A stretch of DNA of 34,770 bases from an uncultured Bacilli bacterium (GTDB taxonomy: Bacteria; Bacillota_I; Bacilli_A; RF39; UBA660): contig CALVVE010000003.1 of assembly GCA_944363775.1 (NCBI GenBank), forward strand, positions 1 to 34,770, written 5' to 3'. A program made the translations under genes and the position numbers. Positions within the stretch are counted from its first letter, which is position 1. The number at the start of each line of letters is the position of its first letter. Below the pieces are notes generated by a model. That model did not search any database. It saw only the letters and a program-made list of their open reading frames with translations, and was not told where the DNA came from. Shown piece after piece: positions 4,536 through 30,869 of the stretch.

Positions 4536-5325
4536 AATAAAAGTAGTTAATGATATTATTGTTTTAGAAGAAATTAACAAAAATATTGAAGTTAAATTTG
4601 AAAATAAAAATGATTCTTTTAACGTTAATAATATTACTTTAAAAATAAAAGAAAGTTGTGATATTGAAATAACTTATGAAGCTTTAGAAAAAACTAAATT
4701 AGATATGTATTTTTATGTTTATCCTAATGTTTCTGTAAATATTTTTGAAGTAAGAAGTGGTGTTAAAACAAAGGTTCAATATAAATATTATATTGAAGAA
4801 AATAGTAGTGTTACAGTTAATAAATTTTATTATAATACTAAACATCGTGAACTTGATATTGTTAATTTAAATGGTGAATTTAGTCGCTTTGATTATTATT
4901 TAAAAACAATCGCTAAAGATAAAGAAAAATATGATTTTATTATTAATCATAATAAAAGTAATACTATAAGTAATATATATCACCATGGAATAAATAATAG
5001 TGATGAAAAATTAACTTTTAATGTAACTGGTGTTGTACCTAAAAATAAAATTGGTTGTGAACTTGAACAACAAAGTCGTATTATAACTAATAAAGACAAT
5101 GAAAATACAATCGCACCAAATTTATTAATAGATGAAGAAGATGTTAGTGCTAATCATGCTGCTTTAATTGGAAACTTTGATAATGAAGAAATATTTTATA
5201 TGATGAGTCGTAGTATTAGTTATGAAGATGCTAAAATATTATTAACTAATGGATTCTTATTATCAGGACTTAGAGAAGATAATAAAGAAAAAATAAAAAA
5301 CATTTTAGATACTGTCTGGGGGTGA
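4528..5325 (+). CDS. sufD: SufD-like Fe-S assembly protein (short)
   Basis: PNLLIDEEDVSANHAALIG and IFYMMSRSI..DAKILLTNGFL; lies between sufC and sufS. Confidence 0.88.
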   Translation: MNKIKVVNDIIVLEEINKNIEVKFENKNDSFNVNNITLKIKESCDIEITYEALEKTKLDMYFYVYPNVSVNIFEVRSGVKTKVQYKYYIEENSSVTVNKFYYNTKHRELDIVNLNGEFSRFDYYLKTIAKDKEKYDFIINHNKSNTISNIYHHGINNSDEKLTFNVTGVVPKNKIGCELEQQSRIITNKDNENTIAPNLLIDEEDVSANHAALIGNFDNEEIFYMMSRSISYEDAKILLTNGFLLSGLREDNKEKIKNILDTVWG

Positions 5326-5329
5326 ATTT

Positions 5330-6523
5330 ATGAACCGTGAAGATTTTCCTATTTTAAAAAATAATCTTATTTATTTTGATAATGGAGCTACAACTTTAAA
5401 ACCACAAGTAATGATTGATGCAACTGTTGATTATTATAGAAATTATAGTGCTAATGCACATAGAGGAGATTATAATATAAGTGTTAAAGTTGATGAACTT
5501 TATGAAAAAACAAGAACACTTATAAAAGAATTTATTAATGCTAAAAAAGAAAAAGAAATAATATATACTAGTGGAACAACTGATTCTTTAAATCGTATTA
5601 TTTTTGGTTATTTTGCTAATGTATTAAATAAAGATGATGAAGTTATTCTTACTAAAAGTGAACATGCTTCTAATCTTCTTCCTTGGTTTGAACTAGTAGA
5701 TAAAATAGGAATTAAAATTAAATATATTGAACTTAATGAACATAAAGAAGTTACACTAAATTCTTTAAAAAATGTTATTACTGATAAAACTAAAGTAATA
5801 AGTATTGCTCATATTACTAATGTTATAGGTGATGTAAGACCAATAAAAGAAATTATTAAACTTGCTCACTCTAAAAATATTTTGTGCGTTATAGATGGTG
5901 CTCAATCAGTTCCACATATGAAAATAGACGTTCAAGATTTAGATATAGACTTTTTAGCTTTTTCAGCACATAAGATGTGTGGACCAACAGGACTTGGAAT
6001 TTTATATGCTAAAGAAGAATTATTAAAAGATTTAAAACCAATTAGTTTTGGTGGAGGAATGAATTCAACTTTTACACCAAATGGGGATAGACTTTATTAT
6101 GCATCACCATATTTATATGAAGCTGGTACTCAAAATATAGCAGGTGTTTTAGGATTTAAAGCTAGTATTGAATATTTAAATAAAATAGGTATGGATAATA
6201 TTAGTAAGTATGAAAAGGAATTAAAGAAATATGCCGTAAAAAGATTAAATGAAATAGATAATTTAGAAATATATAATGAGTTTAGTGAAAGTGGTATAAT
6301 TTCATTTAATTATAAAGATATATTTGCTCAAGATCTTGCTATTTATTTAAATAAATGTAATATTTGTGTAAGATCTGGTAGTCATTGTGCTAAAATTTTA
6401 AATGAAGAATTAGGAATAAAAAATACTTGTCGTATGAGTTTATATTTTTATAATACTAAAGAAGAAATTGACTATTTAATTAAAGTTTTAAAAAATCCAA
6501 AAATTAAAGAAGAAATTATTTGA
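5330..6523 (+). CDS. sufS: Cysteine desulfurase SufS
   Basis: YFDNGATT, DGAQSVPH, PLP site FSAHKMCGPTG, catalytic RSGSHCA. Confidence 0.96.
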   Translation: MNREDFPILKNNLIYFDNGATTLKPQVMIDATVDYYRNYSANAHRGDYNISVKVDELYEKTRTLIKEFINAKKEKEIIYTSGTTDSLNRIIFGYFANVLNKDDEVILTKSEHASNLLPWFELVDKIGIKIKYIELNEHKEVTLNSLKNVITDKTKVISIAHITNVIGDVRPIKEIIKLAHSKNILCVIDGAQSVPHMKIDVQDLDIDFLAFSAHKMCGPTGLGILYAKEELLKDLKPISFGGGMNSTFTPNGDRLYYASPYLYEAGTQNIAGVLGFKASIEYLNKIGMDNISKYEKELKKYAVKRLNEIDNLEIYNEFSESGIISFNYKDIFAQDLAIYLNKCNICVRSGSHCAKILNEELGIKNTCRMSLYFYNTKEEIDYLIKVLKNPKIKEEII

Positions 6524-6537
6524 TTTCTTTTTTTTTA
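6506..6537 (+). terminator. Probable terminator ending sufCDS
   Basis: aagaaat-tatttg-atttctt followed by a long T run, overlapping the sufS stop. Confidence 0.55.
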
Positions 6538-6582
6538 TTTATATTTTGTGATATAATGAATTTGTAGGCTAGGAGGTTTATT

Positions 6583-8790
6583 ATGGCCAAGAAAAAGAAG
6601 AAAAAAGATAATAAAAAAAAGAGTAATGGTTATGAGATAGAATTACAGGGATTAATTATTATTTTAATAACAATAATTGGATTTGGAAGATTTGGTATTG
6701 TTGGTAAACTTGTAAGTTCTTTTGCATCTTTTTTAGTTGGTGCTTGGTATAATGTTTTATTAGTTGCCTTATTTATAATAGGTGCTTATATGATTATTAA
6801 AAGAGCACGACCAGATTATTTTACATCAAAACTTTTTGGAATATATGTATTTTGTATTGGAATACTAGTTTTCTCACATATTGGTTATGTAAATGAAACA
6901 GGATTAAGAGGTTTTCAAATTGTAAAAGAGACAGTAGATAATTTTTTAGCTTCTACAACAAGTATATCTAATATACAAGGTGGAGGATTAATTGGTTCAA
7001 TTTTTACAGCTTTATTTGTTGAATTATTTGATATAGAAGGAACACAAATTGTCTCATGGACTTTATTAATTGGTGGCTTTGTTATGTTTACAGGTATTTC
7101 TATTGCTGATATGATTAGAGCTATGATTGATAAAACAAAAGATACTATAAAAAATAGTAAAGGATTACATAAAAAAGATAAAGAAGAGATTAAAAAAGCT
7201 GAAGATGAATATGAAAGTGATGGTAAAGTTGTTATCAGTAGTGTTGATGAATTAATTCATGAAACTGCTAATAAGCCTAAAGAAGAACCTAAATTAAATG
7301 TTAATGAACAAACTGGGGAAATTATTGAAAATAAAGGTTATAAATTTCCTCCAATTACTTTATTAAATCCAGCACCTAAGAAAAATAATAAAGCTAATGA
7401 AGAAGTTATTAAAGATAACGTTAAATCATTAGTTCAAGTTTTAACTGATTTTGGTATAACTGGAAAAGTAGTTGCTGCTCATATTGGGCCAACTGTAACG
7501 CAATATGAATTAGAAATAAAAGCTGGTACTAAAGTTAGTAAGATTTTAGGTATTAATAGGGAAATTGCTTTAGCTTTAGCTGCTAAAGATGTACGTATTG
7601 AAGCACCTATTCCTGGTAAAAAGACAATTGGTATTGAAATACCTAATAAAGTTACTAGTATGGTTTCAGTAAGAGAAATATTAGAAGCTGTACCTAAAAA
7701 TAAACAAGATTCTAAATTACTTACAACTTTAGGAAGAAATATTATGGGTGATCCTATATATTGTGAAATTAATAAAACACCACACTTATTAGTAGCAGGT
7801 TCTACTGGTAGTGGTAAATCAGTTTGTATTAATAGTATTATTGTTTCAATCTTAATGCGAGCTAAACCAGATGAAGTAAAATTAGTTTTAGTTGACCCTA
7901 AAAAAGTAGAACTTTCTATGTATAATGGGGTTCCACATTTACTTGCTCCAGTAGTAACTGATCCTAAAAAAGCTAATATTGCTTTAAAGAAAATAGTTGT
8001 GGAAATGGAAAATAGATATGAACTATTTAGTAATAGTGGTACTAAAAATATTGCTGGTTATAATACTTATGTTGAAAAACAAAATAAAACAAGAGATGAG
8101 AATGATAAATTACGTAAACTTCCATTTATTGTAGTTATTATTGATGAGTTAGCTGACTTAATGTTAGTTGCTGCTAAAGAAGTTGAAGATTCTATTATGC
8201 GTATTACCCAAATGGCTCGTGCAGCGGGAATTCACTTAATAGTTGCAACGCAAAGACCATCAACTGATGTCATTACTGGTGTTGTAAAAGCAAATATTCC
8301 ATCACGTATTTCTTTTGCTGTTTCTTCTGGAATTGACTCAAGAACAATTTTAGATCAAACAGGTGCTGAAAAGTTACTTGGAAAAGGGGATATGTTATTC
8401 TCAATGCAAGGTGAAGGAACACCAGTACGTGTTCAAGGAACATATATTGATGAAGATGAAATAAAGAAAGTAGTAGACTTTACAATTGAACAACAAAAAG
8501 CTCATTATGATGAAACATTTACTTTAGAAGAAGAAGATAGAGGAGCTACTACAATGGTTGATTCAAAAGATGATTATGAAGAACCATTATATAATGAAAT
8601 AGTTGAATTTGTTGTTCAAAGTGGTAAAGCTAGTGCTTCATTATTACAACGTCGTTTCCGTTTAGGTTATAACCGAGCTGCTCGTTGTATTGATCTTTTA
8701 GAAGAAAGGGGAATAATTGGACCATCTAGGGGGTCTAAACCACGTGAAGTATTAGTAAAATTAGAAAGTAAGGAAGATGAGAATGAATAA
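6583..8790 (+). CDS. ftsK: DNA translocase FtsK/SpoIIIE
   Basis: N-terminal TM helices, PHLLVAGSTGSGKS, IIDELADLM, ATQRPS, gamma domain ASASLLQRRFRLGYNRAAR. Confidence 0.97.
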   Translation: MAKKKKKKDNKKKSNGYEIELQGLIIILITIIGFGRFGIVGKLVSSFASFLVGAWYNVLLVALFIIGAYMIIKRARPDYFTSKLFGIYVFCIGILVFSHIGYVNETGLRGFQIVKETVDNFLASTTSISNIQGGGLIGSIFTALFVELFDIEGTQIVSWTLLIGGFVMFTGISIADMIRAMIDKTKDTIKNSKGLHKKDKEEIKKAEDEYESDGKVVISSVDELIHETANKPKEEPKLNVNEQTGEIIENKGYKFPPITLLNPAPKKNNKANEEVIKDNVKSLVQVLTDFGITGKVVAAHIGPTVTQYELEIKAGTKVSKILGINREIALALAAKDVRIEAPIPGKKTIGIEIPNKVTSMVSVREILEAVPKNKQDSKLLTTLGRNIMGDPIYCEINKTPHLLVAGSTGSGKSVCINSIIVSILMRAKPDEVKLVLVDPKKVELSMYNGVPHLLAPVVTDPKKANIALKKIVVEMENRYELFSNSGTKNIAGYNTYVEKQNKTRDENDKLRKLPFIVVIIDELADLMLVAAKEVEDSIMRITQMARAAGIHLIVATQRPSTDVITGVVKANIPSRISFAVSSGIDSRTILDQTGAEKLLGKGDMLFSMQGEGTPVRVQGTYIDEDEIKKVVDFTIEQQKAHYDETFTLEEEDRGATTMVDSKDDYEEPLYNEIVEFVVQSGKASASLLQRRFRLGYNRAARCIDLLEERGIIGPSRGSKPREVLVKLESKEDENE

Positions 8791-9813: not shown

Positions 9814-9858
9814 AACGTGTAATCCGCTGTCACTATATTTTTAGATATGATTACAGGT
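9814..9858 (+). ncRNA. L19 ribosomal protein leader
   Basis: Stem tgtaatc/gattaca with the CCGCTG motif typical of Firmicute L19 leaders, directly upstream of rplS. Confidence 0.75.
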
Positions 9859-9879
9859 ATAAAAAAAGGAGTGAGACTG

Positions 9880-10242
9880 ATGAATTTAGTAGAAAAAATT
9901 ACTAAAAAACAAATACGTAATGATTTACCTGAATTCCGTGTTGGTGACACTATTCGTGTTGGTGTTAAAATCGTTGAAGGAAATAAACACAGAGTTCAAG
10001 CTTTCGAAGGATTAGTTATGGCTATCCAAGGTCGTGGTATTGGTAGAACTTTTACTGTTCGTAAAGTATCAGGTGGTGTTGGGGTTGAAAGAACATTCCC
10101 AATGAATAGTCCAGTTATTGATACTATTGAAGTTGTTCGTACTGGTAAAGTTCATCAAGCTAAATTAGGTTATATTAGAGATCTAGTTAGTACACCAAGA
10201 ATCAAAGAAAGAAATAAAAATCAAGCAAAAGAAAATAAATAA
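9880..10242 (+). CDS. rplS: 50S ribosomal protein L19
   Basis: [32 protein letters not shown]. Start moved to ATG 9880 after SD AAGGAG. Confidence 0.98.
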
Positions 10243-10264
10243 GACGTATTCGTCTTATTTTTTT
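10237..10264 (+). terminator. Intrinsic terminator after rplS
   Basis: aaataagacg-tatt-cgtcttattt followed by a T run. Confidence 0.85.
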
Positions 10265-10279
10265 GAAAGAGGGGATAAA

Positions 10280-10765
10280 ATGAAACTATTTAAAGAAATT
10301 TTACCATATTTATTAATAATAATTATAGTTATAATTATTAGAACATTTATTATTACACCAGTTCGTGTAAATGGTGATAGTATGGAACCAACATTAATTG
10401 ATAAAGAAATAGTTTTATTAAAAAAATATGATAAGAAATATAATCGTTTTGATATAGTTGTTTTTAATGATGAAAGAGGACATCTAATAAAAAGAATAGT
10501 TGGTTTACCTGGAGAAACTTTATATTATAGTAATAATAAATTATTTATTAATGGTAAATATGTAAAAGAAGATTTCTTAAGTTCGAATGAAGAAACCTAT
10601 GATTATGAATTAGATACTGTTATACCAGAAGGGTACTATTTTGTAATGGGGGATAATCGTGACAATTCAACAGATAGTAGAATAATAGGTTTAGTGCCTA
10701 GTGAAGATATATTGGGAACAACTAGTTTTGTTTTATATCCATTTAATCGTTTTGGAAATATTTAA
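10280..10765 (+). CDS. lepB: Signal peptidase I
   Basis: TM anchor, VNGDSMEPTL, IKRIVGLPGE, YFVMGDNRDNSTDSR. Confidence 0.97.
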   Translation: MKLFKEILPYLLIIIIVIIIRTFIITPVRVNGDSMEPTLIDKEIVLLKKYDKKYNRFDIVVFNDERGHLIKRIVGLPGETLYYSNNKLFINGKYVKEDFLSSNEETYDYELDTVIPEGYYFVMGDNRDNSTDSRIIGLVPSEDILGTTSFVLYPFNRFGNI

Positions 10766-10790
10766 ACTCACCTAACAAGTGAGCTTTTTT
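10766..10790 (+). terminator. Terminator after lepB
   Basis: ctcac-ctaacaa-gtgag-c followed by tttttt. Confidence 0.6.
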
Positions 10791-10819
10791 GACAATTAAA
10801 AATGTTATACTATAAATAG

Positions 10820-11011
10820 TGGAATAATACATTAACATATTGGACTGCAACACCATATAGTGGCTCTAATGCGTGGCACGTGTACAATGACGGAGATGTG
10901 TATAGCGATTATTTTTCCACTGAGTACGGCGTTCACACAGTTATAAATATTGATCCAAATGTACAAATATTATCAGGCAATGGAACATTTAATAGTCCAT
11001 ACCAAATATAG
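10820..11011 (+). pseudogene. Start-less 3' fragment of a C-type-lectin-fold (DUF6273-like) gene with a DGR variable-region-like segment
   Basis: Translated by hand: WNNTLTYWTATPYSGSNAWHVYNDGDVYSDYFSTEYGVHTVINIDPNVQILSGNGTFNSPYQI*. Bounded upstream by TAG (10817-10819). Fits the YWTxTP..AWxV..G..GVRPV..GxGT..PY pattern. Confidence 0.7.
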
Positions 11012-11321
11012 TAATATTAAAAGATAAAAATGTTAATTTATTATCTTTTTTGTTAATAAATTTAAATTATATAAAAATAATGATATAATATAAATCGATT
11101 TTTATTAATTAATGAATGAAAGTATATTATTAACTATTTTAATATAAAAATTTTATTATGATCTTATAGAATAAAATGAAGTTAAAATTAATTATAATAG
11201 AGTAGATTATACAGAGAAATATAATTTTTATAAATTGTTTTAGTTATCTTAAATGACTTAAAATAATTAACAGAATAGATTATTTTTGTTTTTTTATGAA
11301 AAAATAGAGAGGTGTAAGAAA

Positions 11322-11450
11322 TTGAATAATAAAGTTACTACTATTATGAATGTAAACGAAAATGAAATTAGAATTATGAGGGTAGGAAATGAGAATTATA
11401 TCTCATTAACAAATTTAGCAAGATATAAAAACTTTAAGGAACCGTTTTAG
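11322..11450 (+). pseudogene. KilA-N domain gene remnant, N-terminal part
   Basis: SD GAGGTG, TTG start; MNNKVTTIMNVNENEIRIMRVGNENYISLTNLARYKNFKEPF* carries the YISLTxxAxYKN motif. Confidence 0.75.
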
Positions 11451-11499
11451 TAGTGTATTAGAGTAAATGCTATATGTATTAATAAAAAAGGAGGCAAGA

Positions 11500-12354
11500 A
11501 TGGAAAAAATTGGAGATAAATATACTGATAATATTTTTGAAAATATAAAAAACTTAGATGAAAATGGAAATGAATATTGGTACGCTAGAGAACTTTCGAA
11601 GATTTTAGAATATAGAGATTGGAGAAATTTTTTAAAAGTTTTAAGCAAAGCCAAAGAAGCTTGCAAGAATTCTGGATTTAATGTAGATGAACAACTTGTT
11701 GAGTTCAACAAGTTGTCGAAAAGAAACAATAATGCTATTGTTAATATAAAAGATTATAAATTGTCAAGATATATGTGTTATTTGATAGTACAAAATGCTG
11801 ATCCAAGTAAAGAAGTTGTTGCATTAGGGCAAACATATTTTGCTATTCAAACAAGAAAACAAGAAATAACAGAACAAGAGTATGATTCTTTATCAGATGA
11901 TGAAAAAAGATTTTATCAAAGAAAGTTAACAAAACAAGGTAATTATACCTTACAAAAAGTTGCTTTATCTTCTGGAGTTAAAAATATGGCTGAATTTCAT
12001 AATGCTGGATATAAAGGTTTATATAATGGTGAAACTGCAGATGATATCTTTAAAAGAAAGAAATTGCGCTATAGAGAAGATATTTTAGATAATATGAATG
12101 AGGATGAATTAATTGCTAATTTATTTAGAATAAATCAAACTAAACAAAAACTTTTAAAAGATAATGTACATGGAGAAAAAGAAGCAAAAGAGTTACATTA
12201 TGAAGTAGGGAAAAAAGTAAGACGTGCTATTGCAGATATTGGTGGAATGATGCCAGAAGAAATGCCAACACCTAAAAAGAGTTTAAAAGAACTAGAAAGA
12301 GAAAAGAGACAATTAGAAAATAAGGATAAAAAGTTACTAGAAGAAGTTAAATAA
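11500..12354 (+). CDS. dinD: DNA-damage-inducible protein D (Bro-N-like N-terminus)
   Basis: EYWYARELSKILEYRDWRNF, DYKLSRYMCYLIVQNADPSKEVVALGQTYFAIQTRKQE, FHNAGYKGLY, ANLFRINQT. Start ATG 11500 after AAGGAGG. Confidence 0.92.
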   Translation: MEKIGDKYTDNIFENIKNLDENGNEYWYARELSKILEYRDWRNFLKVLSKAKEACKNSGFNVDEQLVEFNKLSKRNNNAIVNIKDYKLSRYMCYLIVQNADPSKEVVALGQTYFAIQTRKQEITEQEYDSLSDDEKRFYQRKLTKQGNYTLQKVALSSGVKNMAEFHNAGYKGLYNGETADDIFKRKKLRYREDILDNMNEDELIANLFRINQTKQKLLKDNVHGEKEAKELHYEVGKKVRRAIADIGGMMPEEMPTPKKSLKELEREKRQLENKDKKLLEEVK

Positions 12355-12385
12355 TATTAAAATTAGTATTTTATTTAAACAAAAA

Positions 12386-12574
12386 TGAGAATAATTAAAT
12401 AATATTAATTTTAATTTCGTGGAATCACACAGAATTAAAAATGAATCCCCTAAAAAATTATTTACAATGTTACCAAATCAATGGTATATGAGAGTAAATA
12501 CTAAAGATTTAAGAAAGTATAGTATTGGAACATTTGCTCACTCAGATATTGCTTTAGAATTTGCTTCATGAATT
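12386..12574 (+). pseudogene. KilA-N domain gene remnant, central part
   Basis: *E*LNNINFNFVESHRIKNESPKKLFTMLPNQWYMRVNTKDLRKYSIGTFAHSDIALEFAS*I matches the KilA-N pattern WExLNNxNF...GTxAHxDIAxEFASW; three in-frame stops. Confidence 0.8.
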
Positions 12575-13843: not shown

Positions 13844-14353
13844 ATGGAGAAGTTTAATCGTACACTTCGCGGCTATGATCCTGTTGAGGTTAACCAATTT
13901 TTAGATCAAGTTATAAAAAAGGTTGAAAATATGGTTATGGAATTAAATAGGAAAAATGAAGAAATACGTATACGTGATGAAAAAATAAAGAAATTAGAGC
14001 ATAAAGTAAATCACAATGAAGAAAATGAAAAACTAAAAAAAGAAATTAGAGAATTAAAAGAACGTATTTCACGTTATGAGAGAACTGAAGAAACATTTAA
14101 TAAAGCTATAATTATGGCTCAAAAAACTTCAGATCAAATGCGTATGGCTGCTCATAAAGAAAGCGAAGTTATTGTTGATAATGCAAAGAAGAATGCAACT
14201 CGTATTGTTAATGAAGCGTTGTTGCGTGCTGAAAAAACTGAAGCAGAAGCAAATAATTTGCGTCACAATATTACTAAATTTAAACGTAGATTAAAATCTA
14301 TTGTTGAAGCACAACTAGAAGTTATAGAAGAAATAGATGAAGTAGAATTATAA
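13844..14353 (+). CDS. divIVA: DivIVA
   Basis: FNRTLRGYDPVEVNQFLD followed by coiled coil AIIMAQKTS..A..NATRIVNEA; conserved position upstream of ileS. Confidence 0.93.
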   Translation: MEKFNRTLRGYDPVEVNQFLDQVIKKVENMVMELNRKNEEIRIRDEKIKKLEHKVNHNEENEKLKKEIRELKERISRYERTEETFNKAIIMAQKTSDQMRMAAHKESEVIVDNAKKNATRIVNEALLRAEKTEAEANNLRHNITKFKRRLKSIVEAQLEVIEEIDEVEL

Positions 14354-14357
14354 AACA

Positions 14358-14560
14358 AAAGATAGAGACGGTTTATTAATTAGTTTATAGAGAGTTCATG
14401 GTGGGTGGAAATGAACAATGAGGTAATAAACAAATCACTCTTGATGTGACTATGAAGATAGTTCCGGGTTTGCACGTTAAGCAATTGAGTTAGAGTTAAA
14501 TCTATAAATTAAGGTGGTACCACGAATGTTTCGTCCTTATGTTTATAGATTTTTTTTATT
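14358..14560 (+). ncRNA. T-box riboswitch (Ile specifier) upstream of ileS
   Basis: Stem I with AGAGA and GGTGG motifs, specifier ATC (14434-14436), T-box AAGGTGGTACCACG (14511-14524) pairing with CGTCCTT. Confidence 0.92.
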
Positions 14561-20319: not shown

Positions 20320-20393
20320 GGGTCTATAGCCAAGTGGTAAGGCATGGGACTGCAACTCCCTGATCGTTGGTTCAAATCCGACTAGGCCCTCCA
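20320..20393 (+). tRNA. tRNA-Cys (GCA)
   Basis: Acceptor stem gggtcta/taggccc, D arm gccaagtggtaaggc, anticodon loop ctGCAac, T arm gttgg-ttcaaat-ccgac, encoded CCA. Confidence 0.96.
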
Positions 20394-27742: not shown

Positions 27743-28066
27743 ATGTATCAAGAAAGATTAATGTTATCACCAAAAGATATTTTGGAAAAAGAATTTAAAA
27801 TTGATACAAGAGGATATCGACCACAAGAAGTGGATAAATATTTAGATATCGTAATAAGAGATTACGAAGAAATGGGTGCAATTTTAAAGGAATTAGACAA
27901 TGATAAAAAAGAACTAATGGAAGAAAATATTTCTTTAAAGAAAGAACTTCGTGCTTTAAAAACTAAGTTAGAAGTATTAAGTGAAGCTAGTAGTAATGAT
28001 GGAACAAATGCTGACTTACTTAGAAGAGTATCTAATTTAGAGAAAATTATTTATGGTAAAGAATAA
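27743..28066 (+). CDS. gpsB: Cell division regulator GpsB
   Basis: LSPKDILEKEFK..RGYRPQEVDKYLD, C-terminal TNADLLRRVSNLEKIIYG; adjacent to rnpB as in Bacillus. Confidence 0.93.
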   Translation: MYQERLMLSPKDILEKEFKIDTRGYRPQEVDKYLDIVIRDYEEMGAILKELDNDKKELMEENISLKKELRALKTKLEVLSEASSNDGTNADLLRRVSNLEKIIYGKE

Positions 28067-28412
28067 TATTTTGACAAACGCTGCATTCTTTGTAATGTAG
28101 AGGAAAGTCCATGCTCGCAAAGTCTGTGATGACTTTAGTGTTCATGTATAGGAAAAAAATAACCTATAGTAGCTTTTTAGCTAACGGCTCTGATGAACCT
28201 ACGTCTTAGGATATGGTTCTAGGTATAAAAGTGCCATAGTGACGATGCTTATTGAAAGATAAGAGTGGAACGCGGTAAACCCCACGAGCGAGAAACCCAA
28301 ATTTGGTAGGGGAACCTAAACAAAGAGAATTAAGAATTTTTGTTGGGATCAGAAATGATAGATAAATGTTTGTCGCCTAGTAATAGGAACAGAACATGGC
28401 TTATAAAATATT
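28065..28412 (+). ncRNA. rnpB: RNase P RNA (type B)
   Basis: GAGGAAAGTCCATGCTCGC, AGTGCCATAGTGACG, GTGGAACGCGGTAAACCCCACGAGCGAGAAACCCAAATTTGGTAGGGG, ACAGAACATGGCTTA; closing stem aatatttt/aaaatatt. Confidence 0.97.
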
Positions 28413-30778: not shown

Positions 30779-30869
30779 TGGCGGAGTAGGAGAGATTTGA
30801 ACTCTCGCGCCAGTTGCCCGACCTACACCCTTAGCAGGGGCGCCTCTTCAGCCTCTTGAGTACTACTCC
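30779..30869 (-). tRNA. tRNA-Ser (GCT)
   Basis: Minus strand: acceptor GGAGTAG/CTACTCC, anticodon arm CGCCC-ctGCTaa-GGGTG, long variable arm, GAGAG-TTCAAAT-CTCTC, discriminator G and CCA. Confidence 0.97.

Follow-up and report, generated by a model that had tools for sequence, protein, structure and literature searches.

Retrohoming by the Bordetella phage DGR needs a 3′ end of the variable region (VR) that matches the template repeat (TR), an IMH-like element, together with a hairpin nearby downstream. In Neisseria, arrays of silent pilin cassettes (pilS) are used by RecA-dependent gene conversion. According to Wu et al. (2018, PMC5758913), the DGR of Treponema denticola has seven non-adjacent targets, and MutS-like accessory genes adjoining avd form a described DGR architecture. 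The DUF6273-like domains of phage DGR targets are described as C-type-lectin-like, with a variable region exposed at the surface (PMC10743442).

We analysed a 34,770-nt stretch of DNA from an uncultured Bacilli bacterium (the window) together with its own assembly (G000; 1.09 Mb, 124 contigs, 73% complete) and those of relatives. A first-pass annotation of the window had proposed an orphan DGR-like variable region at the end of a start-less lectin-type gene, placed behind a promoter. We conclude, with a probability of roughly 0.8, that positions 10789-11055 are a decayed deletion remnant of a DGR-target surface-protein paralogue and not a working variable site.

The first mark of the locus is its base composition. 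The window has a GC content of 24.8%, and the GC island described at 10861-10940 was recovered with the same count, 38 G+C in 80 nt. At least 38 G+C were reached by 121 of 34690 80-nt segments, grouped in five clusters; two of the other four clusters coincide with tRNA genes, one lies in the RNase P RNA and one is the tail of a Pro/Glu-rich gene. RNAs in the window include a class B RNase P RNA (28066-28408), a T-box leader (14350-14541), tRNA-Cys (20320-20393) and tRNA-Ser (30779-30869); the RNase P RNA and the two tRNAs explain three of the other GC-rich islands. The codons quoted from the island in the first-pass annotation were also right, 17 of 24 being NNC or NNT.

The former variable region, 81 nt that can be aligned to a TR of the sister genome G003 (10860-10940, plus strand; GC 0.48), lies within an open remnant of 63 codons that carries the C-terminal part of a DUF6273-like domain (10820-11011, plus strand). 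Its translation is WNNTLTYWTATPYSGSNAWHVYNDGDVYSDYFSTEYGVHTVINIDPNVQILSGNGTFNSPYQI*, with the stop codon TAG at 11009-11011 and another TAG at 10817-10819 immediately upstream of the frame. The frame is indeed start-less, ATG being absent from 10820-11011. An in-frame GTG at 10880 would give a product of 43 aa; no Shine-Dalgarno sequence or ribosome-binding site was seen upstream of this GTG.

What kind of protein did these codons belong to? The fragment alone scored 13.3 bits against Pfam DUF6273 (PF19789; E=0.074, gathering cut-off 23.5), covering profile positions 129-171 of 172, and the full C60 and G003 proteins scored 34.1 and 25.6 bits against the same cut-off. By this alignment, the fragment is the last third of a predicted DUF6273-type domain. 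We keep the label "lectin-type" for the fold because of the Pfam DUF6273 match and the description of such domains in PMC10743442. A model of the C-terminal domain (200 aa, 12-sequence alignment) reached a mean pLDDT of 43.3 and a pTM of 0.34 and was too poor to confirm a lectin fold.

A six-frame search of G000 returned five strong related domain ends, two on C60, two on C17 and one on C52, all within long open frames that are broken by contig ends. Their amino acid identity to the fragment is 42-56%, with C60, C17 and C52 ends at 54-56%. When the G000 copies were aligned by codon, fixed GCN, TGG, GTG, GGN, GCG, CGY and CCA codons alternated with NNY codons, and the NNY codons varied at their first two positions. 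The family proteins carry an N-terminal signal/anchor and two DUF6273-like domains each, and each domain closes with a VR-like segment. The inner (...PYMFE...) and the terminal VR-like copies alike differ from the TR with an adenine bias, own C60_477 being one example, and two diversified sites per family protein seem possible. In G003, 17 places matched a variable-region probe, two of which are TRs.

One of these TRs belongs to a complete cassette on contig C77 of G003, which comprises a target, the TR, a MutS_I-like gene, a bAvd gene and a reverse transcriptase (RT). The target has 611 aa and the C-terminus ...YWTAIPYSASRAWFVFNFGFAYDNPVSSAGGLRPVINVSS..GNGTPNSPYEI*; it is followed by a GC-rich hairpin and then by the 81-nt TR, which encodes ASNAWNVNNDGNANNNSVSNANGVRP. 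The RT has 334 aa and the motif IGNMSSQ. The first-pass annotation was right to assign the fragment to a DGR target family, whose cognate adenine-rich TR stands in G003 together with Avd, MutS-like and RT genes. The second G003 TR lies on C16 (L029, ~5650-5735, minus strand), 3′ of another target and with no RT beside it, and differs from the first at 9 of 81 positions; this arrangement suggests that several TRs are served in trans by one RT. The C16 TR is adjoined by no MutS-like gene, Avd or RT. Its next gene encodes a SipW-like peptidase and is the gene that follows the RT on C7 of the own genome.

MutS_I-like gene, bAvd gene and RT occur in that order on G003:C77, G005:C8, G018:C4, G002:C96 and own C7. 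The cassette of the more distant G005 includes a 670-aa pilin-like target with a matching C-terminal type, a MutS-like gene, Avd, RT and TR, and its VR/TR pair has 8 mismatches. The protein diversified in G005 is a pilin-like one that bears a comparable C-terminal domain.

In the own genome, a TR end lies at the edge of contig C77 (4635-4643), whose reverse complement opens with the final 9 nt of the TR, TGCGTCCAG. The spacer that follows is 96% identical to the spacer after the G003 TR, and the own assembly evidently broke inside the TR. This TR end is placed directly behind a target gene and has no RT, Avd or MutS-like gene next to it. A tblastn search of G000 for the RT of the G003:C77 lineage matched only the C7 RT, at 35% identity; since the bin is 73% complete, the missing RT is no evidence of absence.

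The C7 RT is part of a second, apparently intact DGR of the own genome (C7:2955-7122; locus L013 = 4789-8391). Its TR (4993-5117) and VR (4571-4695) differ by 21 mismatches, all at TR adenines. The target of 581 aa has the family N-terminal module (MRFSSRRRKN..YSALSSYLTINGTS) and a different C-terminal variable region (...PWFGRGGYARYGTGAGLFGVDDSSGGAGSNGGARAVLAP). The cassette also has a MutS-like gene, Avd (78.8 bits against NF033474, cut-off 80) and a 350-aa RT (IGNYTSQ), after which comes a SipW/archaeal-type signal peptidase I gene. This DGR was considered as the diversifier of the window region and rejected, its TR having no blastn similarity to that region.

How did the gene end come to stand behind a promoter? 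Upstream of the remnant and outside it lies a conserved neighbour, a lepB-like signal peptidase I gene (10280-10765, plus strand; Pfam Peptidase_S26, 154.5 bits). On G003:C24, lepB is followed by the promoter stretch, AGGAGG, ATG and a gene start reading MRMSTRKRKN...YSALSSYLTINGTS, at which point the contig ends. On G003:C83, a family member of which 399 aa of the 3′ part are seen is followed directly by a pilin-like gene and sepF. Nucleotide identity to G003 is 94% in the rplS-lepB flank (9847-10821) and 89% in the pilin-sepF flank. The homology to G003 stops at 10821 and homology to paralogues (C17b, 93% over 30 nt) begins at 10823-10824; therefore, the locus has undergone an internal deletion. 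These homology breakpoints place the junction, at which the promoter/5′UTR is joined to the last 63 codons, at 10821-10823 (plus strand). Of the options offered by the first-pass annotation, "deletion relic" was thus the right one, a promoter being fused to the last 63 codons at a locus that is intact in G003. Judging from a 607-aa paralogue, the RBS, the start codon and ~540 codons, or ~1.6 kb, would be missing at the junction. A TGATAA microhomology at the junction was inexact and was dropped.

Three further genomes of the same genus (G001, G002 and G004) have rplS, lepB, the pilin-like gene and sepF, with no target gene in the gap between lepB and the pilin-like gene. The pilin-like gene, 1.6 kb away, had been read as a hint at pilus-adhesin diversification. 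The locus lends this link no support, since in these three genomes the pilin-like gene directly follows lepB without a target.

The remnant begins directly behind the intrinsic terminator of lepB, which a terminator scan placed at 10767-10789 (plus strand; stem-loop 10767-10783, then a T run). The retained promoter region of the lost gene spans 10789-10821 (plus strand), its homology to G003 ending at ~10821. Both promoter motifs named in the first-pass annotation are where it had put them, TTGACA at 10789-10794 and TGTTATACT at 10803-10811; their pairing fared less well, as the gap between TTGACA and TATACT is only 11 nt, a non-canonical spacing. A better -10 candidate is TATAAA at 10811-10816, 16 nt after TTGACA. 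A consensus promoter scan listed neither TATACT nor TATAAA as paired with TTGACA. The case for a promoter at 10789-10816 is made by its conservation in G003 upstream of an intact gene, the equivalent stretch lying 5′ of the AGGAGG, the ATG and the gene start. Local alignment with C52 had suggested that 10796-10822 was once coding and became frameshifted (SKNHTV); this reading is out, as G003 has conserved promoter/5′ region there.

At the other end, the hairpin noted downstream of the frame (~11019-11049) and its T run are real; the hairpin consists of A-U pairs only and folds at -8.3 kcal/mol (z = -2.6). Hairpin and T run (11019-11055, plus strand) are shared with the paralogue C17b in an alignment of the downstream regions and appear to be the gene's own terminator-like 3′ end. 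Directly 3′ of target-gene stop codons, at G000:C60:1296-1362, C52:6475-6541 and G003 L028:2996-3062, lies a conserved GC-rich hairpin (CCCCCACGTGGC...GCCACAGGGGG). It is followed by a T run where there is no TR, and by the TR where one exists.

Could the fusion of promoter and gene end be an assembly artefact, produced by a collapsed repeat family in a metagenome bin? All other family copies in the assembly lie at contig ends, so the family does break assembly. However, both flanks of the junction are unique sequence, and independent Logan contigs of three other runs, which belong to two or three studies, read across 10821-10823. They show 0 differences over 10592-11403 (X2), 7 over 10571-11000 (X5) and 1 over 10776-10940 (X7), in a comparison that low-level diversification could escape, as contigs lose rare variants. 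The truncated form is real and essentially the same across the three other runs, and an artefact can hardly be entertained. A joint in contig X6 (10859 to 10938, 78 nt skipped) was considered as a variant and taken as a paralogous copy, its sides being 32 nt of paralogue-conserved sequence.

To which extent does the variable region still bear the mark of its template? The TR used for counting was that of G003; in the own genome only its last 9 nt are assembled. The 9 sites that differ between the two G003 TRs were excluded, which left 22 adenine and 50 other sites, and 16 of 19 domain ends were compared ungapped (a length of 37 residues was required and three ends were dropped). Most of the compared copies were strongly adenine-specific against this TR: G003_L031 differed at 15/22 A sites and 0/50 non-A sites, own C60_477 at 7/22 and 0/50, and own C52 at 13/22 and 6/50. 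Because C60_477 gives 7/22 against 0/50, the mismatch test is valid in the own genome, and because of the same 0/50 the own TR must be nearly the same as that of G003 at non-adenine sites. The window copy lacks the adenine-only pattern of an active target, with mismatches at 8/22 A sites and 12/50 non-A sites (Fisher p=0.39). This is the highest non-A load among the 16 copies; a diverged own TR could account for some of these mismatches, but the 0/50 of C60_477 speaks against it.

Six non-A changes occur in the window copy alone, three of these within the last 8 nt. The variable region ends in GGCGTTCACACAG in the window and in GGTGTGCGCCCAG or GGCTTGCGTCCAG in the TRs (GGYKTGCGYCCAG in the TR comparison); over its last 13 nt, the window copy has 4-5 differences from both TR versions. 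The G003 positional orthologue retains a TR-identical 3′ end. The drift from GVRP to GVHT, suspected from the window alone, is confirmed and is caused by these unique 3′-end changes. In 15 of 19 copies, a hairpin of 7-9 bp (ACCATTACC-GGA-GGTAATGGT) lies 24 nt downstream of the variable region; among the 19, it is missing from the window copy, its G003 orthologue, C17b and C60b.

A live remote variable region would have its TR and RT somewhere in the 27% of the genome that is not assembled, and its truncated ORF would be expressed from GTG 10880 or fused otherwise. Such a reading can point to the TR end present in the own genome, to other own copies with adenine-only differences, and to the retained promoter stretch and open frame. 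It can also point to the comparison between the window copy and its G003 orthologue, which differ at 12/22 A sites and 14/50 other sites (p=0.037). From this A-biased difference it follows that the locus underwent diversification once the two genomes had separated, most simply in the gene that is intact in G003, and diversification of that gene alone can explain the bias. Against a live region stand (i) the lack of adenine bias relative to the TR; (ii) the degraded 3′ end and the missing hairpin; (iii) the near-invariance of the copy in contigs from three other runs; and (iv) the state of the gene, as an active target would be an intact, expressible ORF and here 63 codons without ATG or RBS are left, which cover the last third of the domain. 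We therefore consider a live variable region unlikely. As for the remote DGR target that had been proposed, membership in the family stands and a live target does not.

The orthologous gene of G003 itself has 11/50 non-A mismatches to the TR, and the lepB-adjacent locus may already have been drifting from the TR when the deletion took place. Outside the variable region, fragment and orthologue are only 52/71 identical, against 94% and 89% in the two flanks. On the reading as a decayed remnant, the window copy is probably no longer a retrohoming substrate and probably makes no protein. The open 63-codon frame and the conserved promoter could reflect residual selection or simply a recent deletion.

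The region that adjoins the remnant, which fills the rest of the gap up to the pilin-like gene, is debris as well. It consists of pieces of a KilA-N gene split by a Bro-N gene (11286-12571, plus strand), as seen from Pfam matches and comparison with G015. The KilA-N pieces (11286-11450 and ~12386-12571) are contiguous in an intact 317-aa KilA-N gene on G015:C1, and the split gene lacks its C-terminal half. Paralogues of the intervening Bro-N gene (295 aa, 11467-12354; Bro-N Pfam match) are found on own C38 (73%) and C5 (68%), and many relatives have them too.

This neighbourhood bears on the idea that the fragment is a silent donor or archive cassette for gene conversion into full-length paralogues, in the manner of pilS. 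A start-less open frame with flanks common to the paralogues (YWTATPYS ... VIN), the many paralogues themselves and a truncated form fixed in several samples would all fit such a cassette. However, neither mosaic nor conversion tracts were seen, and the assembly holds one such fragment and no array. At template-fixed codons, the fragment has non-A substitutions of its own (A to V, V to F, A to E, R to H, P to T), which none of the other 15 copies shows, the adjoining split KilA-N gene marks a region in decay, and the family already has a dedicated diversifier. We regard a silent cassette as very improbable. The same low standing is given to the broader idea that the remnant is kept behind its conserved promoter as a transcribed VR cassette, which would either supply or store sequence for recombination into the full-length paralogues or draw off TR-derived cDNA (a decoy or sink); if it were true, a retroelement-diversified family in a genome of roughly 1.2 Mb would also use silent copies.

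What is then the likely history of the locus? In intact family members, the DGR rewrites the variable region of the C-terminal DUF6273-type domain from an adenine-rich TR. The common ancestor with G003 would have had such a gene between lepB and the pilin-like gene. In the window genome, an internal deletion then took the 5′UTR, the RBS, the start codon and a predicted ~540 codons, so that the promoter region (up to ~10821) became fused to what is left of the frame, its final 63 codons. Both the GC island and the NNC/NNT codons would be the fossil imprint of a GC-rich TR and of past adenine mutagenesis. Ordinary substitutions would have followed at template-fixed positions, mostly at the 3′ end that needs to match the TR.

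The fragment itself is an ordinary pseudogene and changes little. It does offer a signature of a dead variable region, in which the GC island and the NNY codons stay, the mismatches are no longer adenine-specific, and neither the 3′ recognition end nor the hairpin survives; such a signature helps to separate fossil from live targets in metagenome bins. The larger lead is that a small-genome family of gut Bacilli, Mycoplasmatota-like, devotes many paralogous surface-protein domains to DGR diversification. This multi-copy, partly RT-detached DGR system is more interesting than the remnant.

How does the locus compare with the known systems? Like the pilS cassettes, it is the 3′ piece of a gene, lacks a start and has conserved sequence on both sides of a variable segment; unlike the pilS arrays, it is a single copy without a sign of conversion, in a family whose diversifier is retroelement-based. 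Like the remote DGR targets of T. denticola, as described by Wu et al. (2018, PMC5758913), the family has its VR at the 3′ end of genes far from the RT, with many copies and the TR elsewhere. Accepted remote targets are described as differing from their TR at adenines only, with minor exceptions, whereas the window copy has 12/50 non-A mismatches and has lost its gene body. The DUF6273 Pfam domain is shared with the phage "tentaclins" (PMC10743442); unlike these, as they are presented there, the family studied here is chromosomal in a small-genome gut bacterium, has a signal/anchor and carries two domain copies. Finally, relatives and own C7 combine a MutS-like gene with avd and RT as in the MSL-type cassettes ("Architecture D" in Wu et al. 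2018, PMC5758913), but the window holds no part of a cassette, and the TRs on G003:C16 and own C77 have no adjacent RT, in contrast to the cassettes as described. The remnant is thus the descendant of a non-adjacent DUF6273/lectin-type DGR target that was served by a MutS-like/Avd/RT cassette.
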